DNA of 63,826 bases, filler included, from Reclinomonas americana ATCC 50394 (GCA_048213135.1; 20 parts of 20 records of this genome joined end to end with filler, not necessarily neighbours in it); one strand, 5' to 3'; counted from the whole stretch's first letter, positions 8,073 through 63,826 are shown. Made by a program: numbers and translations. Notes: a model not told the origin generated them from the sequence alone.

Positions 8073-10746
8073 TTACTTGGAGGTGCCGACGGCAGACGAC
8101 GCAAACACATTGGCGCTCTGCGCGATGGTGAACGCAGCGCTGTTCGACACGGCCGGTGACATGGAAACCACACGAGCGGGTGGGGCGGCGGGAGGCGGGG
8201 ACATGGGTACAGCCGGCGGTGTCATTGGCATGTCGGAGGAGGCAGACATGGCCGGGTCGCGTAATGGAGAGCGCACGGCGTCTTCGTCGAGACGCACTTG
8301 CTCGCGCACGAATTCCTCCAGGGGAGGGAGGCGGATGGGTGGCTGCGGAGGGGGGAAAGGGGGAGGGAGGGGGGAGATGACAAGGGAGAGAGAAAGTTGG
8401 ATCAATAAGAGGAAGGCGAAGTGGCAGGAAAATGCAGGAGAGTCAAAGGAAGATGAAGCGGCGGACAGATGATGAAAGACGGAGAGCAAAGAGGAATGAG
8501 CGAGGAGGAAGAATGCAAGAAAAGTGAACGGAGGATACAACCAGAGAAGAGAGAAGGAGAGCACTCAGCAATCAGAAACACGGAGGATACGAGAGACGAA
8601 GACGGAGAAGAAACAGAAGCTGCAAGATGGTGAGAAGGGCGAATGGGAACCAAGGAGGATACGAGAGACAAAGCAGAAACCTGACGAGGAATCAGAGAGT
8701 GGCAAGATGGCGAGTAGGGCGGATTAAAGAGCGAACGAGAAACGATGAGGGATGCAAGAAAATGCGAGGGAGAGAGAATGCAGGAAGAAGAAAGTCGGTG
8801 AACGAAGACGAAGGGAGAGTGTAAGCAATGAAGGAGGGAAAGGAGGATGATTGCAAGTGTGAGGCAGACGAAAAACGAGGGGAGCAAAGAGGAACGGGAA
8901 ATGAGAGATGCAAAAGTGAGAGAAACAGGATGGATAGAAGAAAACGGAGAGAGTTGAGCAATGAAAATATCGTGGGAGAAACAGGTGAGAGGATGAGATA
9001 GTGAAGTAAGATGAGGATGTTGAGCATACAGAGTAAGAAGTGTACAGAAACTCCGCCAACCTCAGTCTCCCTCTCTATCTCTTACTCTCTGCCGTGCTTG
9101 CCCCGTCCCTCCCCTCACGCGCACTTCTACGCCGCACAACTCGCTCTGTCCTGTAACAAGTCACTCTCGTTCATGGTTTCTCTCCCTTTCGCACGTTCGC
9201 TGATGCAACTCCCACTACAACTCTACGACTACCTCCCTATCTCTTCTGCAGACAACAAAATGCACGCCAATGAAACCTGCAAGCTCCTGTGGCCAGTCTT
9301 TCAGAGAGCACAATAACATAATCTACAAGAAGCTGCGCTTCTTCACGCACTCCTCCCTTCACCCATTCCCTCGAACTCATTCACCTTAAATCCCTGCCCG
9401 CTTCCCATTGCTCTTCCTCCCTCCCCCTTCCCTCTTCCCTCTTGCCCCCCCTTCTTTTTCCCCCTTCGCCCCTTCCCTCTTCCCCTTCGCCTTCCTCCCT
9501 TCCCCCTTTTCCTCTTCCCCTCTCTCCCTTCCCTCTTCCCCTTTCCCCCTTTTCCTCTTCCCTCTTGCCCCCCTTCCCCTTTTCCCCCTTCGCCCCTTCG
9601 CCCCTTCCCCCTTCATCCCCTCTCCCTTCCCCTTGATCCCCCACCACACCTCCATGCCAACAACATTGCCGAGTCCAAATCGCAAAAACTGCAGCGCAAT
9701 TACCCAGCGATCGCGCACCGCCTTGTCCTCGCACCGCACGTCCAGCGTACGATCATTTGTTACCACACTGAAGCACAGGTCGTTGTCTGGCGAGCGCATG
9801 TCAAACTACGGCGGTCAACGCACACCAATCCGACCGCCACCATACTCAACTCCTCGGGTTGCCGACCAGCGCATCGACACTCTTGAGCGCTTGCGTCTGA
9901 ATGCCCGGCAAAATCGCGCAGATCTGAGCAAGCTTAATATCGCTGCGCAGCTTGTTTGGCTCACTGCCCCACTGTGCGAGAGAGGGCGGAGGGAACAAGT
10001 GAGATTGCAGCTTCCTTCTCGTACCTCTTCTGCCGCCCACCATCACTGCCATCTTTGCCCCTTCTCACCTTGCTGCTTCTCTCACTGCCTCTCCTCTCCA
10101 TCATTATCCCTTCTCTTATTCTGCCCTCTATACGCACCTGCAGCGCCGTGCGCTCCTTGGAGATGGCAAAGAAGCGGGAATGCGGTGAGCCGCCATGGAA
10201 AATGTACTTCATCATGCGCGATCCCTGCTGCGCAAACAACACCGACTCCTCGCTGCGCTTCCGCACACGATCCTCACGCTCCGCCTCCAGTCGACGCTGC
10301 ACTATAGTGAGGTCGAATTTCACTCCTCACCCTCTCTCCACAAGCACGCAACTCGCATCGCCTCCCGACTCTCCTCGGCCTTGCGCCGCCGCCGCTCCTC
10401 CGCCTCCCGTCGCATCCTCTCCAGCTCCTCTAACCTCCGCCGATCCGCCTCCTCTCGCTTCCTTCTCTCCTCCTCCTCCTCACGCCGCCTCTGCGCCTCG
10501 TCCTCCACACGTCGCCGCTCCTCCTCCTCCTCGCGCACACGCTTGCTCTCGCGCGTCTGGCCGACCAGCTTGAGCACATTGCCGAGCTCCTGCATCCACT
10601 GCGCCTTCTCGCTTACTGCATCGGCCTCCAGTGACATGGCGTGCCCGTCAATGAACACAAACTCGAAGCCGCAGGAGGAGTGGTCGTCGGCTCCGCGGAC
10701 GCTGCCCACGTCGAGGAGGTTGATTTGTTCAATGTAGGAGGCATCC
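8073..10746 (-). CDS. Protein with two PH-like domains, an E/R-rich coiled coil and a Pro-rich tail; 5'-partial
   Basis: PH C-terminal helices LEADAVSEKAQWMQEL and TLDVRCEDKAVRDRWVIAL; PLC-type PH start GSRMMKY...HSRFF; REEEEERRR tract; exons join in frame. Confidence 0.75.
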
Positions 10747-11042
10747 TATGGGGAGGGGAAGGGAGGGGGAAGGGAAGGGGAAGGGAGTGAGTGGGGGAGT
10801 GAGTAGGGGAGTGACTGAGTGAGGGAGTGAGGGTGAGGGAGTGAGAGTGGGGGAGTGAGTGGGGGAGTGAGTGGGGGAGTGAGTGGGGGAGTGAGTGGGG
10901 GAGTGAGTGGGGGAGTGNNNNNNNNNNNNNNNNNNNNNNNNNNNNNNNNNNNNNNNNNNNNTTAATTAATTAANNNNNNNNNNNNNNNNNNNNNNNNNNN
11001 NNNNNNNNNNNNNNNNNACACACACACACCTTTTCGTCATTC

Positions 11043-17241: not shown

Positions 17242-17457
17242 CAAGAAGAGAACTGAGTTGAGAATGCCAGCACGTCCCCTCTATGCTCACACTCGAACGC
17301 GTACCCCTAAAACCCACTCAGTGCTCACTGACCAGCATGTGCGTGCTTCGGAATGCTGGCGATACGTCGGTGTCGATGCAGGACAACACAATTAGTGCTC
17401 TCTCTCTCTGTATTGCATCTCACACTCTCCCACTCTCACACTCTCACTTTGCGATCC

Positions 17458-21638: not shown

Positions 21639-21671
21639 AGCGCACACTGGCAACAGCGAATGTTTGTCTGT

Positions 21672-21704
<33 letters not shown>

Positions 21705-21953: not shown

Positions 21954-24900
21954 TCACTGACGCGGTTTGGAGACCGGCAGCAGTATAGCAGCCGATTGCG
22001 CAGCGGAGGAGGCCATTGTGGAGATGCGATTGTCTGCTGCAGCTGTGTCCACCACCACCACCGCCGCGTCGTCGTTTTCGCCGGCTTCGTCCGAGGCAGT
22101 TGCCGGTCTCTTGGCGACGACCTTCTTGCGCAGAATCTTCTTCTTCACCAGCTGCGGACACATGAATGCAGTGTGAGAACGCAATCATGGAACAGAGCAG
22201 CAATAGCAGAAGTCTGCGAACCTTCTTCCTGGGACCGCCAGTGGAACTCGACGCAGCGCCTCCGGCAGCATCGTCGGCTGTCGCCGGCGCGTCGTACACT
22301 TCAGTGATGGTGTGTGTCGTCGTCGTCGTCGTCTCCGTGGTCTCGCCGTTAACAAAGGTCGAGTGGAGCGTCGTCTCTTCGTTGAGTACCACGGGCGGCG
22401 TGTCGAGGCCAGTGAGCGAACCGTCGGAGAGGAGGTGCGAGGCTGTGGAAGACACTGGAGACGAAGTGGAGTGCGGATCGTTGGACAAGGTCGGTACGCC
22501 GAGTCGAGCGTTGTAGTCGAAGGCGTCAGAGAATTGCATGCCGGTGCCACGAAGTGAACTGCCGCGGAGTGGGGTGCCCATCACTGGTTTGCCAAGGGAT
22601 GGCGAAGAAGGAGAGAGATGTAAAATGTTAGCCATTTGTGAAAGTCGCTGTGAAATGGAGCTTTCATTCTCTCTCTTTGACTCTCTTCCTCTCTTTTGAC
22701 TCATCTCGTGTCTTCTCCTACGCACACTCGCCCTCGCTCTCTATCTATCTCTTTTTGTCTTGGCTCCTCTCTACCTTTCTCTCCCTCTCCCTCTCTATCT
22801 CTCCCTTTCTCTCTCTCTATCTCTCTCGCATGACACAATCTCTTGTCACTGCCACACTGACGCACTGTCCTGCATTCACGAAATCTTCGTCTTCCCTCGC
22901 TCCTGTGCTCCGTCAACGTCTTCCCTTTCCCCCTCTCCCACCTCCCATCACCGTCTCTGGTCACCCGTCTTCTATCATTCCCTGTTCTCCTTCCAGTACA
23001 ATCTTCCACTTCCCTCTCCCTCTCCCTCTCCCATCTCCCGTCCTCTCTCCATTCTGGTTCACATCTTCTCTTCCCTCTCTCCTCTCTTCTCCCTCTCTCC
23101 GCTTCCTGTCCTCTCCCTCTCCCTCTCCCTCTCCCTCTNNNNNNNNNNNNNNNNNNNNNNNNNNNNNNNNNNNNNNNNNNNNTTAATTAATTAANNNNNN
23201 NNNNNNNNNNNNNNNNNNNNNNNNNNNNNNNNNNNNNNGCATGAGTCACAGACAATAGGGCGATGTGCTCACCTTGGCTCGCATGTTGCGCAGTGCACGA
23301 GCGCGCTGATCCTCCAACGAGGAGGATGCCGACGCCGCCGATTCCTCCACATTGACGGGCAGAGTCGGGCGCGCCACTGATAGTGGCAATGGATCGGGCG
23401 TCTCCAAATCTGCAGTCGGCGTGAACGGCGTCGACGCGGTGGAACTCACTGACAGATTCCCCGGGCTCCATCCATCGACCGGAGCAGCCACATGGGCGGC
23501 ATTCGCATGCGGCAAATCCTCTCCACGCGTGCTCTCCGAGACGGGCTCGACTATTGCCGTCGTCACTGTCGTCGTCGTCAGCGTGGTCGTGGTGGTAGTC
23601 GTCGTCGTGCTGCTACTGCTGCTGCTGCTGTTGGTCGCGGTGTCTGTGGATCGCGACGACACTGTTTGCACGGGGGCAGCGGATTCGACCGGCCGCACCA
23701 CTGCCCGCGGCTCGTGATGCGTGTCGTCGTCTGGTGTGGCAAATGAACGACTTTGTACAAGAGGCATCACCGTGGCGGCTGTTGCTGCTGATGGTGGAGA
23801 GGCGGCATGTCGACGGACGCTGCCCACTAATGGCGGCGGCTCGACGTGGTCGTGGGTGTTGTTGTGGTGATGACCGTTGGTCGTGTCACTCAGTGCAGTG
23901 GCAAGAGGCGACGATGCAGTCGACCAGGACATGGGCGACGCAGCACCACCCGTGTGGCTGCCGTCCTCACTTGTGGCTGTGGATTCGTCGCCAGCTGAGA
24001 GAGACAAAGGTGTGAGCGGGTGAACAATATCGACCACATCATCAAGGTCGCCAAGCAAGACTCACCAGAGGGTCGTCGCCGGGCCAACTGCTCCAGCTGT
24101 GCACCCGCAGCAGCGTGCGATGCGCGGATTTGCGTGGACCTCGGCGCGCCGCGCAGTACCACACCTCCGTACGGCGCCTCGTCCGTGTCATCGTCGACCA
24201 TTGGCCGTGCTTGCGCGCCTGGCGGCATCCGCACACGGCCCTCGGCAGCATAACCGCCAGCCAGCAGCATCGTACCGATGCGCTTCACCTCGGGATCCAC
24301 ATCGCGCGTCACCAGACGCCGCACAGCCTCTAGAACACCACTGTCCGCCACATCCATTCCGTAATACTCCTTGACTGCGAAACACACGATAAGAAAGAGA
24401 GAGGGAACGGGGACAAGGAGCATGAGACAGACGCAACTGTCTGGTTGCAGCACCGACATGAGCACCATCAGCACCGAGGTCATTGGTTGCATGGTGTCGG
24501 GCGCATTGTCCCACTCGTCGACGAACGAGCGTGAAATGTCGAGACCGTGAGACAAGACAAATTCCTCGCGGTGCGACACGTGCTCTGCGCACGCACACAC
24601 AATCAGCGCCAGAAAAACGAAAAGCAGCAAAAGAGAGGAAAGAAAAAAGTGGCAAAAGCATACAAGCACTGGGGCTTCCCAAGTGGTCCCCCACCCTAGT
24701 ACTGACCCAGCTGAACGCGGCTTAACTTCACAGATCGGACGGGATGTGGTGTTTTCCGCGTCATGTGGCCGTATGCGACCACTTAAGGGAAAGAGTGCAC
24801 GGGGGGATTGCAGGGAGAGGGCAACAGAAGAGAAATGGACGGAAAGAAGGCCAAGAGGGATGAATGCTGCTCACCCTGATGGAATGTGGAAGAGGTAAAT

Positions 24901-27134
24901 AGACACGAGATGGTCACAGCAAGCGAACAAAGACAACGCTATGACAGTACACGAGAGAGAGTGAGAGAGAGATAGAGAGAGAGCAAGGGAAGGAGAAGAG
25001 AGACAGACAGACAGAAGAGGAAGAGGGAGAGAAGGGAGAGAGAACAGCACCCCATTCTTCCGAAATTTTCCTCGATGCTGCAAGATTCCCTCACCTTCTG
25101 CCAACGCCCCGATCGCCTCCAGCAAGTCTGTCAACTCTGACGGCCACTCACTGGAGCCCCCCGGATGACTCCGCATGAGCTCATCCCATCGCCTGATAAA
25201 GTACGTCACTGTGCAGAAGCCCTCCAGAAACTCGACACTCTCGCCGTTTCCTGCGCATCGTGTCAGCTCCTCTGCACCCTTGCCTTTCCGCTCGACAAAC
25301 GACGCAACGAAGGACGGCTTCGGTGAGTGCGCGGACGGCTGCCTCGGCCACCGGTCGGTGCTCCTCATTCACCGGGCGCACAAGACGCAGCAATTCCTCA
25401 AGACCACGGCGATTGCGCAAACGGTCTTGATTTGGTGTGTGATCTAATAACAGCAAGAGAGAGGGAGGGAGGGAGGCACGTGAGCTGCGAAATGAATGCA
25501 TCCAGTGAAACGCAGCAACGCACCTTGTACGGCGGCGCGGATCAAATGCAGTGCCACCAGCGTGTCCCACTTGGGTTTCTGGCGCGGCTTTGTGCGACTC
25601 AACATCTCCGAGGTCACGTTGCCGCCGGTCGAGGGACTCGCGGCCACACGTGGTGATGTACTGTTGCATGGCAAGAGGTGTAAGACGGAAGCGCGGACGT
25701 GGGAGAGCACCGAGTTGAGAGTGAAACGCAACGTCGTTGCCGCATGCGCACGTGTCCTCGCACCACCACGACGCGTGAGCGGAAAGGCGGATGCATCGGC
25801 GGAGCGCGACACCGGCAGCGTGTACTTTAGGAACAGCTTCGAAATGGCCCACCGCAGGCCACCCGACGTGCAGAAAATGTCTTGATTCACCGAGCACGCT
25901 GCACACACAAGCAAGTGAGCAATTCCCCTCCCTCCATCACCGCACGAGATTCATGCCCGTCGCCACCGCACCATCCATGGAGTAGTTCAAGCAATTGGCA
26001 CACAATAACCGAATGAGCTTGGTGACATGCGCCTGTGGCCGGCACAAAAAGTCCACCAGCTGCTCCGTGATCTGACTCGACGCCACCGCATGCCTCGCCG
26101 CGGGACCTGCACACACACACAAGCGCGCTAAGAACACCACCGCCACCACATCGTCGTCATTGCCACAGAAACGCAACACGTCAACAACAAGTGACTAAGC
26201 AGCATCAGCGCCTCGCCCAGCGGCTGCGGCTCACGCACACGCTCCAGCACCGTATGCAACAAGCCGTATCCATCGGTCAACGCCAGCAGATCGTCGCACA
26301 CGCACTGATCGCCACGACGGTTGCGTTGCGCGTGTTCGTACGAGTCTGGGCCCGGGGGAAGGGGTGTTTTAGCAAATCAAATGATCCGATGATGATGATG
26401 AATTGGTGGTGAAGGGGGGGAGTGGGGAGGGGGAAGGGGAGAGAGGGAGAGTGGGGAGGGGGAAGGGGAGAGAGGGAGAGTGCGGAGAGAGAGAGGGAGG
26501 GGGGGGAGAGTGCGGAGAGTGAGTGCGGAGTGTACATGTGAGTGCGTGTGCATGCGGAGTGCTTCGTGAGGGAGCTGAGTGCGTGAGAGAGTGAGAGAGA
26601 GAGAGAGTGAGAGAGAGCGGAATGCGCAAGAGAGTGTGCAAGAGAGTGTGAGAGAGAGAGAGAGAGAGCGGAGTGTGCAAGAAAGAGTGACAGCGTGTGA
26701 CAGCTTCACAAAGAGCGTGAGAGTGTGTATGTGTAAGACCGAGTGTGTACGTGAATACATGCAGATGTCATGATGAGTCGCGAGAGCACGCGCAAACTTG
26801 TGCGTGTGCGCGTGACATCTCTCTCTCGTCGGCCATGTCACACTCACCATACACGACACGCAGCTGCGCGAGCTGCCGCGTCATCTCCACGCTAGTCTCC
26901 GGCTTGTGCACGCGCTTTTCCTTGACCAGACGCCGCAACTGCAATCCACCACTCAGCAGAGCAAGAGGCAGAGAGTGATGAGAGCAGGAAGAGAGAGGTA
27001 ACTGTGTTCTTGATGGCTAGCATCTGCGTGACTGCGTCGAGCTCCTCGGGTGAGTACGCGTGCTGTGTCTGCAGGTTGTGCAGGGTCTGCTCCGCGTGCT
27101 CACGCGACTGCTTGGCGCCCGCTGATTGCCCCAT
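21954..27134 (-). CDS. Large multi-exon protein with ARM/HEAT-like helical repeats and a Ser/Thr-rich low-complexity C-terminus
   Basis: MGQSAG start; ARM-like segments NQDIFCTSGGLRWAI and NQDRLRNRRGLEELLRLV; more than 10 in-frame GT-AG junctions. Continuity across the gap at 23139 is assumed. Confidence 0.6.
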
Positions 27135-27557: not shown

Positions 27558-29449
27558 AGTGGCTCTGTATGTGCAAGTGTGTCTCTCATTGTTTTGTGTG
27601 TTTGTTTGTTATAGGTTGAGTGAGGAGACTCTTGGCAACGCGAGTCTTGCCAAGGGCTCTGCGCAGAAAGCTGTGCGACGACGCTTGGTGGAGATGTATC
27701 CGCTGCTGGAGGAGTACGTGGAGGAGCTGATTCCGAAAAAGGCGCAGTTGACGATTGCCAAGTGGTGTGTGTGTGTGGGAAGGGGGGTGAGAGAGTTGAT
27801 GTTGAATGCAGGACGTCTTCTCTTGCTCTGTTGATTCCTCTATGCGCCAGCAAGCTCAGTGGGTCTCTCTTCTCTCCCTTGTGTTTCATTTCCACTTCTC
27901 GTCGCACAACCCCTCCTCTGCAATGTCTTTCCTTGTGTGTTTTACTTCTCTACTGAGTCTCTTCTGGCATCGATACCATTGCGCTCCATTCACGTCTTTC
28001 TTTCTCTCATTCTTTCACATCCACCGCGACCCACCAACCCTCTCTCATCATGTCATTCTTGCTGAGTGCGGCGTTCGTTTTTTTCTGTCGAGTACTCTTC
28101 CTGCCTTGTCTCTCCTCGCATCGATACCATTGCGCTCCATTCACGTCTTTCTTTCTCTCATTCCTTCATCCAGCTTTTCTCACCAACTCTCCTTCTCCGT
28201 GTCTTTCCTTTGTAGTGGTCGCCTTGCGTCTCGTTTGTCTTGCTTCCTGTCTTACCTCTCCTTGCATCGATATCTTCGCGTGTCTTTCAGGGTCGTTTCG
28301 TTTCCTCATCTCTCGAGCTCGTTTGTTCTTGTGTGGAGCGCATTGCATCTCGTCTCTTCCTGCCTTCCCTGCCCCCATTGCGCTTCATCCAGGGCCATTT
28401 CATTTCATCTTCTGTCCGTCTTGTCTCTTTCCTTCGCATTGCATCTCGTCTGTCCCTTGCTGCCTTCTCTGTCCATGTGCCTCTCCCGTTGCGCTTCATC
28501 CAGGGTCATTTCATTTCCTCTCTCAATTCAGCTTTTCTCACCAACCCTCCCTCTCGATGTCCCTGTGTGTGTTCTGTCTCTTGCTATTCCTGCCTTCTCC
28601 TTCTTCGCATTGATACCACTGCGCCTCATTCTGGGTCATCCCTCCAGCCCATCTCCTTTCTTGTTTGAAGTTTGTCTTGCATCTCTTCTGTCCCTTGATT
28701 CTCTTTTCCCTGCTCTCTTTCTCTCTCTGTCTCTGTCTCTCTCTCTCTCTCTCTCCATCTCTATCTCTCTCTCCCATCTCTCTAACCTTCCTTCCTCCCT
28801 TCCTCTTCCTCCCTCCCTTCCTCCCTTCCTTCTTCCTCCCTTCCTCCCTTCCTCCCTCCCTCCCTTCCTCCCTTCCTCCCTTCCTCCCTTCCTCCCTTCC
28901 TCCCTTCCCCTCACCCTCCCTCACCCTCCCTCACCCTTGACAGTTTCCAACACTGGTCCCTTGTGGTCATCGACGGCGTTCCCATGTTCTTCCAGAACCG
29001 CGACGGCGATGTGTTCCCCACACTTCGCGTGCTCCACAAGTGTTGCGTTTCTCATCCCTCCCACTTCTCCTTTTCTCTCCCTCACTCACCACTCCACCGA
29101 CAGACCCCTTCATGATGCCGCACATGCAAGCGGATCGCGGTGCGGTGAGGCACATTCTGAACGGCGCACCGCTGCTGTGCCCGGGTCTGACCTCCAAGGG
29201 CGGCGCCATGGACGACGTGCCGGCCGGCGTGCCCGTGGCCATCATGATCGAGGGCAAGCGCCACGCGCTGGCTGTCGGCCTCACCGTGCTGTCCACCGAG
29301 GACATGTTGCGTTTTGTTTTGTTTTTTATTCATCCTTCCATGTTGCCACTCACCTCGCGCCGTGTCGCAGTCGGAAAGTGAACCGCGACACAGCCGTCGA
29401 GGTGTACCACACGCTCAACGACGGCCTGTGGAACATGAAGAAGTTGTGA
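27195..29449 (+). CDS. MCTS1: MCT-1/Tma20 PUA-domain translation reinitiation factor
   Basis: MFRK|LSEE...KGSAQKAVRRRLVEMYP...FFQNRDGDVFPTLRVLHKYPF...ADRGAVRHILNGAPLLCPGLTSKG...EGKRHALAVG...HTLNDGLW; four introns. Confidence 0.93.
27960..28630. repeat. Intronic degenerate repeats in MCT-1 intron 2
   Basis: GCATCGATACCATTGCGCTCCATTCACGTCTTTCTTTCTCTCATT occurs twice (near 27967 and 28118); TTGCGCTTCATCCAGGG(C/T)CATTTCATTT occurs twice. Confidence 0.6.
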
Positions 29450-43510: not shown

Positions 43511-44738
43511 TTACGGTCGCAAGCGACGCAGCTCGCCCTTCTCCGCATCAGCTGCCTCCTCAGCCGCGGAGTCCTGCAGCACCCAGCGCCACAGCGCACC
43601 GGCACCAATGGCACCGATCGCAGGTCCGAGCCAGTAAATCCACCAGCCGGTCCACGACACGGCGACGAGAGCCGGGCCAAAGGAGCGCGCGGGGTTCATG
43701 CTGGCGCCCGACACCCAGGCACCGGCAAACACATTGGCGGCGACCACAGCGCCGACACTCTGCACCGGAGAAGCAGCAGCGTTGAGAAGAGAGACAACTG
43801 CATGCGTGTGACAGTGCATTCCACCGCGCCAACGCAACGACAGGGACCAGCTTCTTGAAGGCGGGATTCTTGGTGACCAGGAGCACCGACAGCAGCAGCG
43901 TGAACGTGAGGAAGATCTCCGTCACCAGCGCGGTGCCTTGCGAGACCGCCGGCCCAGGAACCGTCGAGCCGCACTTCTCATCAAGAGCGCCCGGCAGCAC
44001 CAACAGCAGCACGCAGCCAATGATCGCTGCAGGACAGTGAGCGAGTGCCACTCGCTCATTCTCCACAAGCGGCCACTCACTCACCACCGAGGCACTCGGC
44101 AATAATGTAAAACACCGCACGCAGATACGAGTGCGGGAAGCGCCCGGCCACAATGTGCGCCAGCACGTTGGCGGGGTTGATGAATGCACCCGACACGTGC
44201 GCAAACGTAAACACAATGAAACCAACGGCCAAACCGTTGACGCCCGCCGCCGCAATCAGCCGGCCAATGGCATTCGCATCGCCTTGGCTGTCGGAATAAT
44301 TATCATCATCAGCATGCTCTCTGTTGCACACACACACTCTCTCTCGTTGTCTCACCGCAGTGACGGGTTGCCAGTCACTATTGAATGCGCATGTGAGTCA
44401 GTGCGTGTGTGAGAGAGAGAGAGAGAGTCGATAATGCACAGTGCGGCTCACCAATGGTCGTGTATCCAATGAGCGACAGCAAGCTGCATCAGCAAGGCGT
44501 CATCACACCACTCAGTTCGTTCTCTCTTTTACATAAGACGCAACAACATAGTTCCGAGGAACTCGCCCACCATCTGCCGCACAAACGCGCGCACACCACC
44601 CTCATCGCTATACAAAATGCGACTGAGTGCGCTCTTCCGCGTGCTCGTCGCACCGCCCGCGTGATTGACGCTGCTGACACCAGAGGCGGTCGTGGAGCTC
44701 GGCTCGTCGAGAGTGCTGTAGCCACCGCGGCCCGCCAT
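43511..44738 (-). CDS. Aquaporin (MIP family)
   Basis: [34 protein letters not shown] and WIYWLGP; five introns. Confidence 0.93.
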
Positions 44739-50164: not shown

Positions 50165-53100
50165 TCACGCCGGGATGCCAATCGCCACCCACGTCACATA
50201 CGTCTCCTCCACACCTCCCCCACTGCTCGCCGTCACCGTCATCTGCCCGTACGCTCCACTCGCCGCGCTGCCTTGCGATGGAACCACATCTGTCGGCAGA
50301 ATCGACGGATTGACCTGCGATGCACCAGTGCCGGTTGTCTTCCATCCGCGCAAGAACGCGGCGGTGTGGAAATCATTCTGCTTTAACCCGCGGGTTGATT
50401 GACGGCTGATGAGGGTGACCACCAGCGGCGCGTTTCCCACGAGCGTGCTCTCTGCAACATGACGGTGATCCAGGTCAGTAATCGTCAACTGCCTGCTAAT
50501 CTCCGCAGACAAACTCACCTCCCGAAACCATCACGTAGCCACTGGAATTGTCACGCGGCACCAGCCGCGATCCCACCAGCATGGAGCGCAGCTCCAACGC
50601 CTGCACGCGACTATCGCCGCGCACCGTCATCAACACCTGCGAGGTGGCAGCGGCCACATCACCGACAGCCACCTCAAAGTTGTCGCTGCGCGCCGTGCCA
50701 CTCGGATCGAGTCGAATGGACCGCACACCCGTCAGCGCCAGCGCAATCGACGGAATCTCATCAAACCCGAACGCATGGGCATTCACCATTTCCTGCTCAC
50801 ACAGCCGCGCGGTTGCGATGAATGAGTCCAGCGACCATACACAGGTCTGCTTGCATCAACAAACCGTGGTGAAATTCTTGTCGGTGGCCAGGCTCAGCCA
50901 CTCATTGGCAGCTTTCTGACGCGGCAACTCGTTGTCGTGGGTGTACGTCGCGGCAGGGTCCGCGTACATGGCGATGAAATCTGCGACGTAGGTCGTGAGT
51001 TTCATGGAAGTGTGCATGAGAACTAAATCGATCTCACGAAACTGGTAATGAGCGAGTCAAACTGCGCAGTGCCGAGTGCCGAGCACTGTACCGTCAGCAT
51101 AAAATTGGTGACCGACGGCCTCGCGCAGCGAATGTCAGTGTCGCCCTCAATCGTATTGGAGAGAGCGGAGATGCCAAAGAGCACAGTGGGAATCGCCGGG
51201 AACGATTGCACAAAGCGGTGCGTGATCTCCACGGAGCGAGTGCCAGTGCCAGTGCTCATCTGTCGCACAATCAGGAAGCAAACGTCAGCATGCAAGCCGT
51301 GGACACCATGTGATCGAAAATGCCATGCTATCCAACCCGCTCCTCTGTCCCTCCTCTCTGTTTCACACATAAACTCTCTGACTCACCCACTTGTTGTTGT
51401 TTATCTCATCAACAGCACCTCAACATTTCCTTTCTGTCCCCCACCTCCTCTCCTCGCACGCACAGTTGACCTTCAAAGTCGACCTCCTCTATGTCACTCA
51501 TCTGTTGAATCCCCAAGCACACACTCCCAAAAGTCTCAGCCATTCCCCCTCCTCAACTCTTCCACTCCTGTCACCCACAATTCGTCCCCTCATGCGGTGC
51601 ATTCACATCACACAGGGGAACAACTAATCTTTTCCTCTCCCCAGTCGGTCTCTCACTCTCGTAGGACACGAACAATCTCCACTGATGCCCTCCTCCTATC
51701 TCACTCCTCCTTCTTACCGTCGTCACACAATACCACAAATATTGACAACCTGTCCTTCCTCTCTTCTCCCTCCAACCTCTCTCTCGCATACAGAATCAAC
51801 CTCCATTGACAGCGCTCGCTTTGTAACCCTCTCGATGGCATCCAATCCACACACTACCACAACCTATTCTATCCCTATCCCCCTCTGACTTGCGACACAC
51901 ACAGCCTCCACAGTGCACTTCTTACTGTTACTATCTCGCCAATGCATTCTCATCCACACTGCCACAAGGTATCAATTCCCTTCCCACGTCTGATGATCCT
52001 CTTTTACCACACGCACTGCCTCCACGGAACACTTCTCATTGTTACTATCTCTGCAATGCATTCTCATCCACACTAACATAAGAAGGTATCAATTCCCTTC
52101 ACACGTCTGATGATCCTCCCTTGCCACACACACAAGCAGCCTCCGCAGACATTCTCCTCTTTTCTCCTCTCTCCAATACATTCCCATGTGTACACCCTCA
52201 ACCGCAACCAATCCGCTCCATCCCTCCTCTGTCGATTCTCACTGTCACACGCATATATTTCCACAGACATTCTTCTCCTCTCCCTTGCATCCATCCACAC
52301 ACATACTTAATCAACGTATCATTTTCTTCCCCATCGGGCGATTGCTGTCACACACACATTTTCACAGACATTCTTCTCCTCTCCCTTGCATCCATCCACA
52401 TTACCTACCACGACAACTCGTTTCCCTCCCCCCTCCTGCATTTCTTCGCATGCCACACACAATCTCCCTCGAACTGACTTTCCTTTGATTCTCTCTTCCT
52501 TGCATCCATGCACACACTGTCGACCACGACTCATCCTTTACATCCCCCCTCTGACGATCTTCTCTCGCCATCCAATCCCCACTGACACACTTCTGTCTGT
52601 TTCTCTCTCCTTCACATCCCCATCAACACACTCACTGCCGCAACCAATCCGTCTCCTTTTCTCCTCCTTCTCCTTTCCATTCTTGGCACTCTCATTCACC
52701 TATTCATCCCCAGACGGTCCTCTCCTTCGTCACAAATTCTCCACAGACACACTTCTCCTCGTTACACTCCCCAACGCGTTCCCATCCACATACTTTCAAA
52801 GCTAATCTGTTCCCTTTCTCCCTTCTGCCTTTCCCTCTTTTGTAATGCACACAAACTCAACAGATATTCTTCAGTCTGTTTCTCTCTCCCTTGCTTTCCC
52901 ATCAATACACTTCCACCCTCTGTCACTTCCTCGCAAAAAATGCCTCCAAAACCCCCCTTCTCCTCGACTCACTTCCCTCCCTCCCCTTCCCACCTAACCT
53001 CTCTTCTCCTCGTCTCACATCCTTCCACATCGCCCATTATCTTCCCTACTCCTTGTCTTCACTCCCTCCTCCCCTTCCCTCTTTACCTCCTTCCCTCTTT

Positions 53101-56100
53101 ACCCCCCTTCCCTCTTTACCCGCCTTCCCTCTGCACCTTCCTTCCCTTTAATCCTCCCTTACCTCTTCAACCCCTTCCCTCTTTACATCCTTCCCTCTTC
53201 ACCTCCCTTCCCTCGTCACCTCCCTTCCCTCTTCACCACGCAACAATTGTCCCCGCCTGGTTGGCCACCACCGACGACGTCTGCACCAGCATACCCGAGG
53301 TAACACGAATGTCGCTGTTCGACACCGCCTTGTACGTCGCCCCTGGAGTGGTTGCCACACAGAATGTGGCATACACCGCCTTGGAGCTCGTGAGCTGCAC
53401 TTTGAACTGTCCACAGCCGCCAGCAACAGATCCATAGAAGCATGACGACGCATCAAAGACGCCGTCCTGGAAGGCCGTAAGCGCAAGGGCCGCTGACGAG
53501 AGAGAGATACGCAAAGAGGGTGAACCGTGAGTACAGATCTCCTCCACCCACCGCCCGCGCAAAATCTTATCATTCTCAGCACTCACCCGAAGCCGGACCA
53601 TTGCAGTCGGATCCAGCGTCGACCACCTTGAAACGAGTACAATTCGACAGCGTGCGTGATGGCGAATGCAACACCAGCGTAGTTGGTACACCGAGAGGCA
53701 GAGACTTTGGAGAAATGAAGCCGACATCGGGGTCGGTGACGGTCGTGATGGTCAATTGCACACCGAGAGGCACATACGAGCCGTCTTGGAAGCTGTGAGG
53801 AGAAATGTCGTCAGTGGAATAGTCGATGGTGGTGAAACGTCATTAGATCAATCGCATTCTCTCTTATCCTTCCACTGTTCTCGTTGAACATGAAGGAGAA
53901 TGACAAAAAGTCTCACTCATTTGCGCATGCAGTCTCTCACTGTCAGTTGCCTACTGTTCCTCAGCCCTCGTGCCTCTCGCAACCGCCCTCTCATTCACAT
54001 CCTTCCACGTCTCTCGCACAAACAGAAGATCTACTTCGTGGCTCACCTACCTCTCCCGCTTTACTTCATCTCTCCTCCCGGCACCCACTGCTTTGTTCTT
54101 TCTGCCTCACATCCTCCACTCTCACGCCCTTTCTCAACACCATTTCCCCTCGCCCATATCTCTCTCAACGGCAATACCCTCTNNNNNNNNNNNNNNNNNN
54201 NNNNNNNNNNNNNNNNNNNNNNNNNNTTAATTAATTAANNNNNNNNNNNNNNNNNNNNNNNNNNNNNNNNNNNNNNNNNNNNACATCCTCCACTCTCACG
54301 CCCTTCTCAACACCATTTCCCCTCGCCCATATCTCTCTCAACGGCAATACCTCTCTCTCTCCCCTGTCTCTCTTTCTTCACCGTCGTTCCTCCCTTTCCC
54401 CATCTCCCCCTCCCCTCCTCCCTCTCTCTTTCTCCCCCTCCCCTCCCTTTCCCACTTCCCCTCCCCTCCTTTTCCCTCTTTCCCTCCGCAACACACCGAC
54501 CACAAATTTGATACGTGCCAGGTGGATCCAGCGTGCACGAGGCGAGTGAGACCGCAGAAATGGTGGAAACCGTGGCCGTAATACGCGTCGGCGACACCGC
54601 ACTGACCACAAAGGCAGCCGCCCGCAAGTCCATCGACGAACAGTCGGTGGCGAGTGAAAGGAAGAATGCCAGTGGTGCGCCTCCAGGTGTGACTGGATTA
54701 CTGCCATTGGCGGCACTTGTAGCCAGCAACGGGAAGTCACCGCCCGACAGGACCACAGTTTGCGACTTGATGCCCTGAGATATGGAAGGCGCGGAAGTGC
54801 TCTTGACACGATCTGCATACTCACCTCGTAAGAAGAAAAGGAAGTAAACTTGACAGCAAAATATCTCCAGCAGGAACGCAACAAATGGATACAGACGCCA
54901 TGCTGAAGTAGCCTGCCAGGTCAGTGGACGACAGGCACAACTGCTGCTTGGTTGGTGTTGGCTCTCCAGTCGTGTCGAATGTCCATGTGATGGTATAGGT
55001 CGTGCCATCAGACGCGATGTTGAAGCCGCTAATGATGGTGGCCACATTTCCGCGGCAGTCGGCGTTCTTAAACAGTGTAAATGACGGTGTGGCAAAGGGG
55101 AACGAGGCCACTGGCACCGTCAGCACCACCACTTGTCCGGACAAACCGACGCGAAGACCGATTGTGCTAGATGTTGTTGCGCCAGTGACTACGGACAGAT
55201 GCAGGAGAATGAGAAGGATGATGGATGTGAGCATGACATGCTGGGTGACCGCACCCATAGTCGTTGTGTTGCCGATTGTCACCGTGTACGACGACGCCAC
55301 AGTTGGGAATGAAAATGTTGGCAACGGCACTGCCGAAAAACACAAGCACATGAGCAACTCATTTCGATCTCTGCACTCTTCGCACTCTCCACTCGTACTC
55401 ACAGACTGTAAGTTGACCACCGGCGACGACAGTAAACGATCCGACGCCACCAAACTGAATGCTGTAATACACAGTGTGAGTGAAAGGAATACATTCACGC
55501 TGGCTCAAGCTCGCTTCTCGCAGAGAGTAAGAGAAAGGAAAACGAGCTTTTGACCAAAAGAAACCACCGAAGACGACCAAGAATTCTCATTCAATCGATG
55601 CAAATGTCTCCAGTCTACAAACTCCATCCACTATCCTCTGCAATACGGGGCTCCATTCTAATGTAATCTCGTGCATCTCGCTCAACATACATGCTTTCAT
55701 CCACAGTGTCTCTCTGGCCACATGATGCATGTTACAACTCACTCATTCTGTTCACCGTTGCTTCCACATTCCTCATCCCGTCACCTCCTTTTCCTCCCTG
55801 CCAGCTGAGCTGGTCTCACTCTCTCGCCCTCGCTCACTAGCTCACATATACACACTGTCACACTGCACAAGTTCTCGCACACGGAAACAACCGTACATTC
55901 TCATTGGTCCCAGTTTCTATTCTCCCCTATAGCTACTCATCTCTCACCTCCTCTTTTCTCTCTCTCTTCTTCCCCTCTCCTTTCTCTTACATTCCATTAT
56001 CTCCTCTCATCTTTCCTCTCATCCCCTCTCTCATACATTCTCCTCTTTTCCTCTCTTCCCTTCTCCTTTCTTCCCTTCTCCTTTCTTCCCTTCTCCTTTC

Positions 56101-59100
56101 TTCCCTTCTTCTTTCTTCCCTTCTTCTTCTCTCTTCTCCTCCCGTCTCCTCTCCTTCCTCTTCTCTCTTCCCTTCCCTTTCCCTCTCCCTCTCCTCCCTT
56201 CCCCCCCTCTCTTCTTATCTCCTGCCTTCCCTTCACGCCCTTCTCTTCTCTTCCCCCCTTTCCCTTCTCCTCCCCACTCACCACACATAGAATGATCCAA
56301 CTGGAACGGAATTCTCCGCAGTCGTCGCCACGACGACCTCACGAGCCGACGCCACGCCGCCAAACGACTGCGCTGCGAGACGATAGGCAGTCGCCCCCGA
56401 ACACGTTCCAGAGGGCATCAGCTGCACATTATCCGATGCCAACAGACCGTGACCGGTGACAGTCAGCAGTGCGCCAGCCAGCTGACCGGTGATGGTGGAA
56501 GGAGTGAAAGCATCGGCACTCGACACTGATCACACAAGCACGGTGAGCGAACGGAAGCCGCAGTGTTTCCAAATACGGACAGGAAGCTGTTTGCATACCG
56601 ACTACGAGAGCCGAATTCGGGACCATGACGTACGGGTAACCGAGTGTGCCCACAAAGTGGTAGCTGTTGGGCACGAATGGTGAGCAATAAACAGTGGAGA
56701 CACATAAAGCAAATTCATGGATTGAGATAGACGACTGACCAGACAGCATAGTAGCCACTCGGAAGGAAACTCGTGTCCAGCGTCACAATCTTTTGCAACC
56801 CACCAGCCACTGACGTCGACGTGAGCGAGTACGATGTGGCAGTGTCGCAAGACACGAAAACACTTGTGCCCAAGAAGAGCGCGGCGGTATCGGCCTGCTG
56901 CAAACCGGCACCGGTGATCGTTATGTGCACACCAGCAGTCTCCGCGACGATGGTTGCCGGACTGTACCCGGTAACTACCAGCGGAGTCACTGGTCGACAA
57001 GTGCATGAGCAACGACGTGGAAACGTTCATGATGCACGATGCGCGGCATCAACGTACCAACAGAAATTTCAGTCGTGCCGACTTTAGAGTATGCGCCTCC
57101 CGTCGGGTACGTCAGTTGAATGCTGCGACGGGATATCAACGATGAGCACAGCAAATACGATGACAAGTAAATGAGTAGCGCAGATGGGGGATGCAAGAGC
57201 ACGAATAAACGTGCCATGGCAAGATGGCACACAAACACTGCACCAATTCTGCTTCTCTGAAAGCACCCGAGGTGAAATAGAGAAGATAGAAAGTACAAAC
57301 AAAGGGCGTCTGCGCCGACAAAGATCGTAAAGAATTGAGCGTAGAGAGACAGCCCAGCGCTACTCCAAAACGAACCACACAGAGTAGGTGCCATTAGTGA
57401 GACTGGTATCTGGTGTGAATGCCGTCTTCAACCGCGCTCCTGCCACGCCAGCTGTTGCAGCACTCGGAGTCAAAGGGAACTGCGGACTGCCGCTGCAAGT
57501 CGTCCCAGACACCAGCTTGACCGCATCGGCCGCAAGCAGGCCGTGCCCCGTAATGGTAATCACTAGATTGGCGGTTCCAGAGAAGGTCGTGTCTGGTGAG
57601 AAAGCATCGGCCGTCTCGACTGTTTATCAGCAGCGCAGGAAAATGCAACCCACGAAGAAATGTAAGGCAGCACAATCAATACCATGGAGACCGTGATATG
57701 AACGTACCAGCAGTAATCGTGCCGCCAGAGACCGCCACATAGCCGGTGGTGTAGCTGAACTGAATGCTGGGAGAGGAGAAATTGTTGAGAGAAGAGGAAG
57801 AAGAGAGGATACCATGCAGTGCGCATGAGACTAGAAACGCGCATCCACTAACCAAATAGTGTAGGGGCCCGCCGGAATGGTGAGACCAGGAGTGGAAACC
57901 GTTAAAACTCGCGCACCCGCTGACCCGCTAAATGAGCCCGTTGACAGGCTGTACGTTGTACCCGCGCAGCCGACACCGGCAGCAAGTTGCACAGAATCGG
58001 AGTTGGCAAGGCCGTGGCCAGTAACGGAAATCAACTCGCCACTGGTCTCGGAGCGAATCGATGAAGGAGTGAAGGAGTCGCCGCTTGCACCTGTGGTAAC
58101 GGAGAAAATGAAATGCGGGATAGATGCGGGGAGACAACAAAGGGGACAAGGCAACAACGAGAAAACGGTGGACGCAATGTGTGTGAACGCACCAACTTCC
58201 AATGCACTGCCGACACTGACAAGACTGCCGGCAGCGTCGTACTGATAGCTGTGAGAGTTCAGCAAAAACGAGTGAGCAAAACAGAGCAAGACACAATCAC
58301 ATTCAACCATACCACACAGTGTAAAATCCCGCAGCGATCGCAGTGCTTGACGTGGTGAAGCGAACCGTGCGCGCTCCGGCGCTTCCACCGACAGTGCCAG
58401 TTGTCAACGTGAACGAAGTCGAACCACCACACGTTGCACCCAATACAAGTCGCACAGCATCTGTGTTTGACAAAGCGCGTCCAGTTACTGTCACGGCTTC
58501 GCCAGTCGTCTCTGCAGTGATCTTCGACGGCGAGTATGACGTTGCCGATTTGGCTGTAATGGAGCGCACAACCAGTTAGCGGAATGGAACTAAAACTAGA
58601 CCTTGAATCAAGAAAACAGTACGCAACAGACGGTCAGTGCTCCCGTCAGCGCCACAAACGACCCAGTGTTGTTGTACTTGTAGCTGTTCCATGCACATGA
58701 CGTAAGTCGTACAGCAGAAAATCGCGTAAAAGAGAATCACTTTGTAAAAACAACAAGCACGCCAGCTCAATCCCTCCACACCTCATCCCATCTCATCTCC
58801 ACACACACACACACTCACCACACCACATACGATCCAGCCGGCGTCAGATTCACATTCGCCGCAGTGCCAACCACAGTCCGCGCTCCCGCAACACCTCCCG
58901 CCGATCCCACAGCCAGATCGTACGTCGTCGCTCCGCCACACGAAGCACCGAGCACCAGACGAATCGCATCCGCCGTCGTCAATCCACGTCCAGTCACCGT
59001 GATCGTCTGTCCACTCGTCTCCGCCACAATCGAACTCGGCGAGAATGACTCCGCCAGTTTGTCTGCAAAAGAGGGAGGAGAGAAAACGAAAGAAAAACGA

Positions 59101-61425: not shown

Positions 61426-61460
<35 letters not shown>

Positions 61461-63826
61461 CAACAATGTCATCAGCAAGAAAACACACAAACATCCTGCA
61501 TCACGAGTCATAGTTCACAAACCACACAAGATACGATCCACCAGCAAGACTGCCGTCGCCGGTCGACACTGTCAGTGTGCGCGCTCCAGCCGATCCACCC
61601 ACTGCTCCGCTCGTCATGTTGTACGTCGTCGTGCCAGTCGTACACGTGCCGCCGCCGCCAGACACCAATCGTACAACGTCAATCGCAGTCAGTGCTCGAC
61701 CAGTCACCGTCACCGTCTGTCCGGCTGTACTTGCACCGATTGCAGCTGGAGAGAACGACTCCGCCAGCTTGGCTGCAGTCCGATTCACAAGACAGAGAGA
61801 CAAAATGAGCCACAAAAATGAAACACAATAAAACAACATGACAACATAAAGACTACTACAAAGAAACAGTACGCAACAAACGGTCAGTGCTCCCGTCAGC
61901 GCCACAAACGACCCAGTGTTGTCGTACTTGTAGCTGTTCCATGCACAACACGTCAGTCGAAACAGTAGAAAATCTCATAAAAGAGAATCACCTTGCAAAG
62001 ACCATAGAAAACAACAACAGGCACGCCAGCCCAATCCCTCCACACCGCATCCCATCTCATCTCCACACACACACACACTCACCACACCACGTACGATCCA
62101 GCCGGTGTCAGATTCACATTCACCGCAGTGCCAACCACAGTCCGCGCTCCCGCAACACCTCCCGCCGATCCCACAGCCAGATCGTACGTCGTCGCTCCGC
62201 CACACGAAGCACCGAGCACCAGACGAATCGCATCGGCCGTCGTCAAACCACGTCCAGTCACCGTGATCGTCTGTCCACTCGTCTCCGCCACGATCGCACT
62301 TGGCGAGAATGACTCCGCCAGTTTGCCTAAAAAAAAAAAGAATCAGAAATAAAGGAAACAGTGGCGGTGCAGCAGCGCATCCAGTTTGCAAGTACCCTCT
62401 CCCTCTCCCTCTCCCTCTCCCTCCCTCTCTCCCTCCATATTATGNNNNNNNNNNNNNNNNNNNNNNNNNNNNNNNNNNNNNNNNNNNNTTAATTAATTAA
62501 NNNNNNNNNNNNNNNNNNNNNNNNNNNNNNNNNNNNNNNNNNNNGCCCACTGAAGAATCTCCAATGTACAGAATCCGTCGCACTTCGTCCAGATACAGAT
62601 TGCGCGGATCCACAAACTTGGCAGAGGTTGCGGCACCCACAATGAACCCACTGGTATTCTGGCCCACAAGAGTGCCAAGCTGCACCGGACTCGCCGCCAA
62701 GTCCAGCTGCCTAACCTTGCGTCCGCTCGTCGATCCCACGTACAGCTTGCTGACTGACAGATCGAGAGCGAGCCCGGCGGGTTCGTTGAATGTTGGTGTG
62801 GTGGTTGAACAGTCGCCATCGGCGCCGCCAGAAGTACCGTATTGACCACACAGCAGGGTGATGGACGAGCCGTCGACATTCACACGCCTGCCACAAAAAA
62901 AAAAATATAAGATAAAGCCATACGAGTTACCCATAACACCGCAACTGCCGAATTGGCGGCATACACCGACAAGTGAAATAGCTCCTCACTGATACAAAGC
63001 ACAAATACTGCTCAACGAACTCGCACCAAAACAAGATCACATGTCCACTCCCCACCTCAGAAACTACTGGTCTACTACAACAAATCTACTCGCTGCGCGA
63101 TACCTCACCTTACAGTATGCTTGTTGAACTCGGAAAAGTAAAGCACCTGGTTGCCCACGTCGTACACCACACTGTAGATGAAGTCTGGAGCAGGCGTCGC
63201 ACTGCTGCTCGTGACCAACGATGTCGTGTAGCCAGTTGACGACACTCGTCGTAGTGCGTTGTTTGATGTCTGCGATAACAGACAAGTGAGTTCACAGTGA
63301 CGAGAATAGCCAACATCCAACAACCAAGCAGATGTGACGACAACAAGGAGGATTTAAGGCCCGAAAGCGACACGATGCAAGGCCCGAAAGCGACACGATG
63401 CAAGGCCACGGGAGGACGGCAAGACAGGAACGAAGGGTGTACATCGTAAATATAGATGTGTGTGCAGAAAGAGAGAGAGAGAGAGAGAGAAGAAAAAAAG
63501 AAGACAAGCCCATTGTCTCACGCACGTCAGCAACGAAAAGTGTGCTCGACTCTAGATCAATAGCAAGGCCTCGTGGACTGCACAGGCGCACAAAACAATA
63601 TCAACATCATGTCAGATACACGACATCAAAAGCGACAGCAATCTCAGAATCACAAAATTCACACGAACCTGTTGAATCGCGCCGTAGACGCCGCACCATC
63701 CACCAATGCTCCAGTCGCTCCACACACGCCAGCAAATGTCGAAACCATGCCCGATGACACGTCGATGAATCGAATACAGTTGTTGCTGCGCGAGAGCAAC
63801 GACACGCATTGGAAGGAAGGAGAGGG
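50165..63826 (-). CDS. Giant extracellular protein: NHL-like repeats, at least 12 IPT/TIG-like repeats and H-type-lectin-like C-terminal domain(s); 5'-partial
   Basis: NHL-like PRGLAIDLESSTLFVAD and PAGLALDLSVSKLYVG; repeats of SF.P.SI.AET.G..ITVTG.GL...D.V.LV....C.G...G.Y.VC; H-lectin-like MSTGTGTRSV....F...FPAIPTVLFGISAL. Single-gene continuity across three gaps is inferred. Confidence 0.65.

Follow-up and report, generated by a model that had tools for sequence, protein, structure and literature searches.

Departures from the standard pairing between 5' splice sites (donors) and U1 small nuclear RNA (snRNA) have been described in several eukaryotes. At the shifted-register sites of humans (Roca and Krainer 2009, via PMC4856993) every base pair with U1 is displaced by one position, but the cut is still made at the GU, and all validated non-canonical registers together account for 3119 of 201,541 human sites, or 1.5% (PMC4856993). 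Two main kinds of 5' splice site, in which the strength of the G at position -1 and that of the intron side are mutually exclusive, have also been reported (PMC9803359, PMC11732430, PMC11842720). Donors are of the GUU type in Entamoeba and carry a C at +4 in Mastigamoeba, Thecamonas and the Mamiellales, with a matching change of the U1 5' end reported in Entamoeba and Mastigamoeba (10.1101/2022.06.08.495308), and the donors of diplonemids read (G)/GTATG (PMC12621601; a slash marks the exon-intron boundary throughout). Here we describe an abundant second class of donors, typified by GTTGCGT, in a 63,826-nucleotide (nt) stretch of DNA from Reclinomonas americana ATCC 50394 (GCA_048213135.1), which is referred to as the window. 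These GTT-class donors coexist with ordinary donors of the G/GTGCGT type, from which they appear to be displaced by a single nucleotide. Analysis of the sequence confirmed the observation as real and supported its description as two registers.

Like the human shifted-register sites, the GTT-class donors are of the GUU type, and their +1 G would stand in for the -1 G of ordinary sites. They differ from the human sites in constituting ~25-30% of introns, in possessing a rigid consensus of their own and in avoiding G at -1, and their pairing with U1 is a prediction. The mutual exclusion of a strong -1 G and a strong intron side is found here as in the two major classes described elsewhere, but those classes keep the +5 G in one register, whereas in the window the intron-side consensus is displaced by one base. 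Resemblance to the Archamoebae, in which U1 and donors have co-evolved, lies in the lineage-wide use of atypical donors (10.1101/2022.06.08.495308). In that source, however, Entamoeba, Mastigamoeba, Thecamonas and the Mamiellales have one consensus each, while here two coexist in the same genes, exemplified by a flippase gene in which five of the 11 donors are GTT-type. The GTT class is, like the U12-type introns, marked by a second rigid donor motif with no preference for G at -1, but it lacks the U12 donor sequence RTATCCTT and any distinct branch site or branch distance, and takes a far higher share of introns. A literature search, whose scope excluded subscription journals, supplements and the organism's genome paper, found no report of an abundant GTTGCGT donor class or of two consensuses one base apart at comparable frequency.

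Removal of the proposed introns restored gap-free alignment with relatives at nine GTT-type and nine ordinary donors. The nine GTT-type donors (six GTTGCGT, two GTTTCGT and one GTTGCTG) are fixed to the base by a relative of the flippase, human MCT-1, a protein fragment (P0003) and the continuity of Pfam profiles (Table 1). The best evidence is that from the P4-ATPase flippase gene, where the six other donors are G/GTGCGT (twice), G/GTGTGT, G/GTTTGT, G/GTAATT and G/GTGAGC. The relative, P0001, is a 1326-residue flippase that was the sole match of a word search with one exon and comes from contigs of ~4.5 kb, the size of a messenger RNA. It is 50-63% identical to the flippase exons of the window; the P0001 search returned one relative at 52% identity, and named proteins (from plants, a jakobid and dictyostelids) at no more than 42%. 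The P0001 alignment breaks exactly at the proposed junctions and resumes without a gap at 39778, 40774, 41713 and 42018. For the intron at 41060, a reading of the P0001 sequence revealed no counterpart of the 21 residues that the intron would encode; the downstream exon, of 8 codons before the contig ends, has no alignment of its own to P0001. A metagenome scan with P0001 for the DNA of relatives gave 104 pattern matches, none of which was confirmed, and a scan with one flippase exon gave five loci at 38-39% identity over a poorly conserved part only, which were judged unrelated.

In the MCT-1 gene the match to the Pre-PUA profile (positions 54-84 of 86) stops where the exon preceding the donor at 29042 ends, and the PUA profile begins in the following exon. 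Human MCTS1 aligned with this middle exon from just past the acceptor of the 29042 intron to the sequence ...STED at the donor 29306. In the aquaporin gene the MIP profile runs over three successive exons (39-99, 100-154 and 167-220), fixing both an ordinary donor at 44084 (G/GTGAGT) and the GTT-class donor at 43838 (C/GTTGCGT). A HMMER library search with the gene at 23.9-24.6 kb produced two weak matches: P0002, which was dropped as a homology anchor as it is a repeat protein, and P0003, a fragmentary relative that anchors the intron at 25308. Elsewhere in P0003, the sole relative obtained for this gene, the alignment ends exactly at the 24437 (-) donor and is followed by 26 hydrophobic residues (161-186), an end that would result if the record were a translation of genomic DNA in which an intron at this very position had been read through.

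Further GTT-class introns were placed by frame, gene model or paralogue. In the UBE2S-like gene the UQ_con profile (39-63, 67-87 and 91-114) extends over three exons with G/GTGCGT donors, and the five donors other than 31489 all follow G. The single GTT-class intron of this gene must be spliced to reach a lysine-rich tail ending LKRL. Splicing at 44544 yields ...EFLGTM-F-LLSLIG; the first exon of the aquaporin gene has no Pfam match. The CH profile (27-92 of 109) ends near the donor at 36827, where an alternative in-frame GTCAGC donor 12 nt upstream is also possible. The intron at 10352, which the gene model did not call, has a CTCAC branch motif, a CAG acceptor, a length that is not a multiple of three and open frames on both flanks. 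In two tandem paralogues, termed A and B, which share a GTT-class intron, the upstream exons are near-identical (two mismatches) and the downstream exon is without indels, while all three indels between the copies (12, 4 and 15 nt) fall between GTTGCGT and CAG.

The 25 sites proposed by the earlier, sequence-only reading of the window thus comprise nine donors fixed by homology, 14 placed by frame logic, gene model or paralogue alignment, and two that are undecidable (45321 and 53244). For the 20 GTTGCGT sites the corresponding numbers are six (41060, 42018, 29042, 29306, 25308 and 43838), 12 and two. Among the variants, 39778, 40774 and 41713 are fixed by homology to P0001, and 37104 and 51042 were placed by the gene model alone. 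The claim that several donors are fixed by conserved protein sequence or frame was borne out by homology for MCT-1 and the flippase and by the in-frame stop for UBE2S. Of two in-frame sites that had been thought less certain, 41060 gained support from P0001, whereas 25732 still depends on the gene model. Both the 41060 and the 24437 introns are in frame and free of stop codons, such that retention of either would insert 21 residues and not break the protein. Three GTT-class introns, at 41060-41122 (+), 24375-24437 (-) and 31427-31489 (-), are exactly 63 nt long.

Table 1. GTT-type introns and undecidable GTTGCGT sites of the window, in order of position; the slash in the donor and protein sequences marks the splice junction.
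Coordinates	Strand	Feature	Donor	Length (nt)	Phase	Evidence and remarks
10297..10352	-	GTT-class intron, charged coiled-coil-like open reading frame	A/GTTGCGT	56	0	Read by eye
24375..24437	-	GTT-class intron	A/GTTGCGT	63		In frame, no stop; gene model
25251..25308	-	GTT-class intron	C/GTTGCGT	58	1	P0003 aligned on both flanks with equal spacing
25661..25732	-	GTT-class intron	C/GTTGCGT	72		Gene model only
26107..26177	-	GTT-class intron	T/GTTGCGT	71		Gene model only
29042..29103	+	GTT-class intron, MCT-1	T/GTTGCGT	62	1	Pre-PUA profile and human MCTS1 alignment
29306..29370	+	GTT-class intron, MCT-1	T/GTTGCGT	65	2	Split codon gives I, then RKVN...
31427..31489	-	GTT-class intron, UBE2S-like gene	A/GTTGCGT	63	1	In-frame stop inside intron
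34734..34801	-	GTT-class intron	A/GTTGCGT	68		Gene model
36827..36888	+	GTT-class intron, CH-domain gene	GAG/GTTGCGT	62		G at -1; gene model; read-through leads to stop
37104..37169	+	Variant GTT-class intron	GCG/GTTCCGT	66		G at -1; gene model only
38175..38260	+	GTT-class intron	T/GTTGCGT	86	1	Gene model; best acceptor score in set
39778..39857	+	Variant GTT-class intron, P4-ATPase	A/GTTGCTG	80		P0001 gap-free, ...QFHRPAN/VYFL...
40774..40852	+	Variant GTT-class intron, P4-ATPase	A/GTTTCGT	79		P0001 gap-free, ...NLILR/ECQLRNT...
41060..41122	+	GTT-class intron, P4-ATPase	A/GTTGCGT	63		In frame, no stop; P0001 alignment ends exactly at donor
41713..41786	+	Variant GTT-class intron, P4-ATPase	A/GTTTCGT	74		P0001 gap-free, ...GFQLR/SADES...
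42018..42082	+	GTT-class intron, P4-ATPase	T/GTTGCGT	65		P0001 gap-free with frame change, ...QALD/IFAQEGLRTL...
43760..43838	-	GTT-class intron, aquaporin	C/GTTGCGT	79		MIP profile 100-154 in upstream exon, 167-220 in downstream exon
44484..44544	-	GTT-class intron, aquaporin	T/GTTGCGT	61	2	Read-through leads to stop after 6 codons
45321..45327	+	GTTGCGT after A, intron status undecidable				Contig ends at 45378 (58 bases later), before any acceptor
50981..51042	-	Variant GTT-class intron	A/GTTTCGT	62		Gene model only
53238..53244	-	GTTGCGT after T, intron status undecidable				Purine-rich repeats downstream; model acceptor weak (score 1.6, 545 nt)
54813..54882	-	GTT-class intron	T/GTTGCGT	70		Gene model
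58554..58627	-	GTT-class intron, paralogue A	T/GTTGCGT	74		Gene model and alignment with paralogue B
61773..61877	-	GTT-class intron, paralogue B	T/GTTGCGT	105		Gene model and alignment with paralogue A

GTTGCGT occurs 34 times on the two strands of the window, compared with 11.31 +/- 3.38 times in dinucleotide-preserving shuffles (the largest count was 20, and 0 of 100 shuffles reached 34). All 20 GTTGCGT coordinates of the sequence-only reading (seven on the + strand and 13 on the - strand) are among the 34 matches, and its variants are likewise present (GTTTCGT at 40774, 41713 and 51042(-), GTTGCTG at 39778 and GTTCCGT at 37104). The last exon base is other than G at 19 of the 20 sites, as had been asserted (T 10, A 6, C 3 and G 1), the exception being 36827; of the remaining 14 copies, four have G at -1. 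Three copies at 3321, 3489 and 3647 (+), all of which follow G and are spaced by 168 and 158 bases, belong to a repetitive region whose open frames are of low complexity, and are not intron starts in the gene model.

The class was also recovered by a gene model that had no knowledge of donors. The spliced open reading frame (ORF) finder combined codon log-odds with a score for acceptor and branch and a prior on length, and never used exon bases; in its first pass every GT was an admissible donor and all were scored equally. This donor-blind pass gave 121 introns, nine of the 17 hand-placed ones exactly among them. GTTGCGT was the commonest donor heptamer of the 121, found nine times against 0.50 expected (from 34 copies in 8284 GT sites; p = 2.5e-9). 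GTTTCGT ranked second (three against 0.13), and the GTTNC class as a whole numbered 15 against 2.0 expected. A caveat is that 11 of the 17 introns used to train the acceptor matrix are GTT-type, although such training could not teach the model a donor. When a mixture of two position matrices was fitted by expectation maximization from random seeds, every round arrived at GTGcGT (~0.7) and GTTGCGT (~0.3). The final model contained 137 introns and recovered 14 of the 17 hand-placed ones. For the curated set 14 of its 23 chains were kept, from which three introns known to be wrong were removed and to which four hand-placed introns were added; the chains dropped were those of WD40 genes, the helicase and the antisense strand, the weak chains 14519-14755, 20901-22513 and 30095-31113, and the chain 50168-53836. 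GTT-class introns make up 25 of the 100 in this set, one paralogue pair being counted twice among the 25. Exhaustive enumeration of GT...AG pairs, with 12,732 candidates, was too permissive, and the codon score alone was dropped for spliced ORFs and acceptor choice because it joined paralogues and selected wrong acceptors.

The two classes differ sharply in the base that precedes them. In the curated set G occupies -1 at two of the 25 GTT-type donors compared with 31 of the 45 ordinary GTNNGT donors (p = 7.6e-7), in agreement with the original assertion that ordinary donors mostly follow G. The contrast is complete among the homology-anchored donors (0 of 9 against 9 of 9; p = 4.1e-5), and is seen both in all 137 predicted introns (2/26 against 40/67, p = 4.4e-6, with 21/44 for donors of other types) and in the donor-blind pass (2/15 against 19/24). 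As the GTT-class share of G is below the 35% expected from codon positions (p = 0.002), G at -1 is avoided in this class rather than merely relaxed. At -1 the GTT class (T11 A9 C3 G2) has a base profile similar to that found at -2 in ordinary donors (A14 T14 C12 G5), the share of G being indistinguishable (2/25 against 5/45, p = 1.0), which is what the proposed one-base slide of G/GTGCGT entails. Donors that start with GTT and retain G at +5 and T at +6 follow G, as at 42209 (G/GTTTGT), 57852 (G/GTTAGT), 35939 (G/GTTCGT) and 50864. The -1 base therefore co-varies with the position of the G-U pair (+5/+6 as opposed to +6/+7) and not with the T at +3.

By contrast with their donors, the 3' halves of the two classes are alike. 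CTCAC is the commonest branch motif in GTT-class and ordinary introns; the median distance from branch to acceptor is 22 nt in the GTT class against 19 and 24.5 in the comparison sets, the share of pyrimidines is 0.62 against 0.61 and 0.58, and the acceptor is CAG in 22 and TAG in three of 25 introns, with CAG in 36 of 43 in the comparison. None of these differences was significant in any test, although the model on which the comparison depends treats every acceptor by one and the same score. Median intron length is 68 nt for the GTT class and 79 nt for the ordinary class. All 17 hand-placed introns start with GT, end with AG and contain a branch-like YTNAY 10-45 nt before the acceptor, in keeping with the general architecture of the window, in which exons of ~70-250 bases alternate with introns of ~55-110 bases that carry a CTNAY branch motif and a CAG acceptor. 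Judged by these features, the GTT-class introns are ordinary short GT-AG spliceosomal (U2-type) introns. A blastn-short comparison among 93 introns, from which the donor heptamer and the last 8 nt had been removed, found no similarity involving the GTT class (E <= 0.01) beyond one low-complexity pair (39778 and 44451); the other similar pairs are ordinary-class repeats or paralogues.

Two donor classes with exact boundaries, a rule for the -1 base and identical 3' halves are observed, and from these we infer that pairing with U1 and U6 sets the register. The proposed mechanism treats both donor forms as a single motif, G-K-U-G-C-G-U, where K is G or U. An early recognition step, probably by the 5' end of U1 snRNA, would bind GKUGCGU in one fixed register, the G...GU spacing would later be read by U6, and cleavage would occur before the first GU within the motif. 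If K is G this would give G/GUGCGU, the ordinary class, in which the first G of the motif is the last exon base. If K is U the product would be /GUUGCGU; the intron would start one base earlier, with its last exon base in the ordinary -2 slot, and this placement would explain the -1 rule. The shifted U1 register that is used at rare human sites would be employed constitutively for about a quarter of introns, and U6, in pairing with the G-U pair, would have to tolerate a distance from the cut that is longer by one base. It may be conjectured that a GG step would let the two C residues of U1 slip into the other register, spoiling the hand-over. Recognition of this kind would call for either a changed U1, or a second U1, or proteins that carry much of the recognition.

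On the sequence evidence, the reading of the two donor forms as one motif cut one base apart stands at about an even chance. None of the counts obtained in the window contradicts it. Its complete version is a dual-register code in which GKUGCGU is bound in a fixed register, the cut is made at the first GU and an upstream G is forbidden, made possible by an altered 5' end of U1 (position 5 being G, or U1 existing as a second variant) and by a U6/Prp8 active site in which one more base can separate the cleavage site from the ACAGA pairing; this version is put forward tentatively. From the sequence-only proposal that two registers are in routine use, the routine use itself (25 of 100 introns, and ~30% in the mixture) and the non-G base at -1 are supported, as is the description as two registers by the match of -1 with the ordinary -2; at the snRNA change that the proposal implied, predicted duplex energies no more than hint. 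With the standard U1 5' end, a nearest-neighbour model gave -6.3 kcal/mol for the ordinary consensus, whereas the GTT class reached only 0.5 to -1.8 whichever register was used. When the U1 carries G at position 5 (the ACGUACC end, as in the Mastigamoeba candidate), ordinary donors come to -12.2 and the GTT class to -4.2 to -5.6, with the shifted register as its predicted pairing. For a hypothetical ACGCAAC end the GTT class comes to -10.3 to -11.9 and the ordinary class to -7.5.

Several points weigh against the shifted-register reading. Given the feeble pairing of the GTT class with standard U1, a plain shift on that RNA looks too weak to act alone. Pairing with a bulged U and G at -1 is more stable (-8.5 kcal/mol with the G5-type U1), yet G is avoided, so the stability of the U1 duplex does not explain the -1 rule, nor does it explain why +5 of the GTT class is almost always C. 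The corresponding +4 of ordinary donors is mixed (C 19, A 17 and T 12), and the classes are consequently not a pure slide of one another. Downstream of the motif there is no mirrored shift: the ordinary +7 is rich in G and the GTT-class +8 is rich in T. The counts come from one 64-kb window, and most ordinary-class introns derive from an error-prone gene model. The errors of the model included introns in intron-less WD40 genes, a false intron at 32069 in a UBE2S exon, the splitting in two of a 201-nt intron at 40454 and the loss of MCT-1 to an antisense chain.

An alternative, which need not exclude the shifted register, is that an altered or second U1, complementary to GUUGCGU, reads the GTT class in a normal register of its own, ordinary donors being recognized either by another copy or, at the cost of one mismatch, by this RNA too. 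This is possible, if on the doubtful side. The energies given above are consistent with it, as standard U1 pairs with the GTT class at only -1.8 kcal/mol or weaker, compared with -10.3 to -11.9 for ACGCAAC (ordinary class, -7.5) and -4.2 to -5.6 for ACGUACC (ordinary class, -12.2). The near-fixed +5 C would fit pairing with a G in the snRNA, and co-evolved U1 5' ends have been reported for Entamoeba and Mastigamoeba (10.1101/2022.06.08.495308). The same source, however, describes Thecamonas and the Mamiellales as preferring C at +4 and yet retaining a standard U1. Searches of the window with Rfam revealed no snRNA: at gathering level only 5S ribosomal RNA (rRNA) was found, and at E <= 1 there were 24 matches, none to an snRNA, those to microRNAs lying on dinucleotide repeats and far below threshold. 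Moreover, a new U1 by itself gives no account of why the GTT-class -1 copies the ordinary -2.

The observed anticorrelation of a -1 G with a strong intron-side consensus might instead reflect compensation between the exon and intron sides of the donor (U5-type AG//GU against U6-type //GURAG, or the left- and right-handed preferences of LUC7), with no change of register. Donor classes of this kind have been described (PMC9803359, PMC11732430, PMC11842720), but compensation is quite unlikely here, as the G-U pair of the GTT class is at +6/+7 and not +5/+6, the share of G at -1 falls short of the background (2/25 against 35% expected, p = 0.002) and is not just relaxed, and the GTT donors that keep the +5 G follow G. 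It is very unlikely that U1 pairs with GTT-class donors as it does with ordinary ones while one U of +2/+3 bulges out. Although registers with a bulge at +3 (or +2) have been validated in human cells (PMC4856993), and a bulge provides the most stable predicted pairing of a G5-type U1 when G is at -1 (-8.5), such pairing leaves -1 opposite C9 of U1 and predicts the ordinary share of G, in conflict with the 2/25 against 31/45 observed (p = 7.6e-7).

A long, rigid donor motif without preference for G at -1 is a trait of U12-type introns, and it is on this trait that the GTT class could be viewed as transformed U12-type introns read by a U11-like RNA. Such an origin is highly improbable, given that branch motif, branch distance, pyrimidine share and acceptor are the same as in ordinary introns (with the model scoring acceptors alike), that RTATCCTT has one match in the window (14910) and none at GTT-class sites, and that the branch is not set apart from that of ordinary introns, as a U12-type, TCCTTAAC-like branch close to the acceptor would be. 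Finally, misplaced boundaries or introner-like mobile copies with a common 5' end are barely credible as the source of the class: most of the 20 sites were first identified by eye, and 41060 and 24437 are in frame without a stop, but nine boundaries are fixed by homology and, among 93 introns, the low-complexity pair 39778 and 44451 is the only similarity that involves the GTT class.

The window is eukaryotic DNA with a G+C content of ~55%. It consists of ~20 contigs of 1.5-6.7 kb joined by 100-base linkers (44 N, the 12-base stop linker TTAATTAATTAA and 44 N), which occupy 6944-7043 and 18 further places, so genes on the two sides of a linker need not adjoin in the genome. Pfam identified the P4-ATPase flippase, MCT-1, the aquaporin, RCC1 repeats, a PIG-L enzyme, an epimerase, the CH-domain protein and many WD40 paralogues, and the UBE2S-like E2 gene is present too. 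A full-length 5S rRNA gene at 24657-24776 (-) (103 bits, model positions 1-120) is located on the sense strand inside an intron of a protein-coding gene; this intron, 24585-25094 (-), has the donor G/GTGAGG and is 510 nt long, the other introns of the gene measuring 58-80 nt.

At least seven WD40 paralogues, which are intron-poor, lie within 11019-14417, 17332-19895 and 46711-49891 (+). They have in common an N-terminal ...LLCQHVLKGH... and a C-terminal ...CLPEMVLRCFIVEEA..., the latter resembling an F-box placed at the end; in one copy a sense-strand GTTGCGT at 18468 falls within this C-terminal F-box-like coding stretch. The region 14961-16962 (-) contains two long overlapping open frames, one with DEAD and Helicase_C domains as well as weak similarity to the flavivirus-type DEAD family (E = 1.7e-4), the second of 451 residues with no family match; together they are possibly a single lineage-specific or virus-derived helicase gene. 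Intron-dense tandem paralogues whose family is unassigned occupy 54526-60417 (-), with 23 predicted introns, and 60559-62300 (-), with six. Several of their introns are 87-97% identical between copies, for example 60322/61335 and 58818/62082.

The base-exactness of spliceosomal cleavage, and the uncoupling of U1 binding from the site of cleavage, have been learned about chiefly through engineered minigenes and some hundreds of unusual sites in humans. If the two-register reading is true, thousands of natural introns would exist in the shifted form beside the normal form in the same genes, constituting a natural experiment that would bear on how the register is chosen, how U1 hands over to U6, what the G at the end of the exon does and how snRNAs and splice sites co-evolve. 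In practical terms, gene finders trained on one donor matrix will put about a quarter of the donors of such genomes in the wrong place and thereby shift reading frames. Should the dual-register code be true, about a quarter of the introns in this organism would depend on a mechanism that is exceptional in other eukaryotes.

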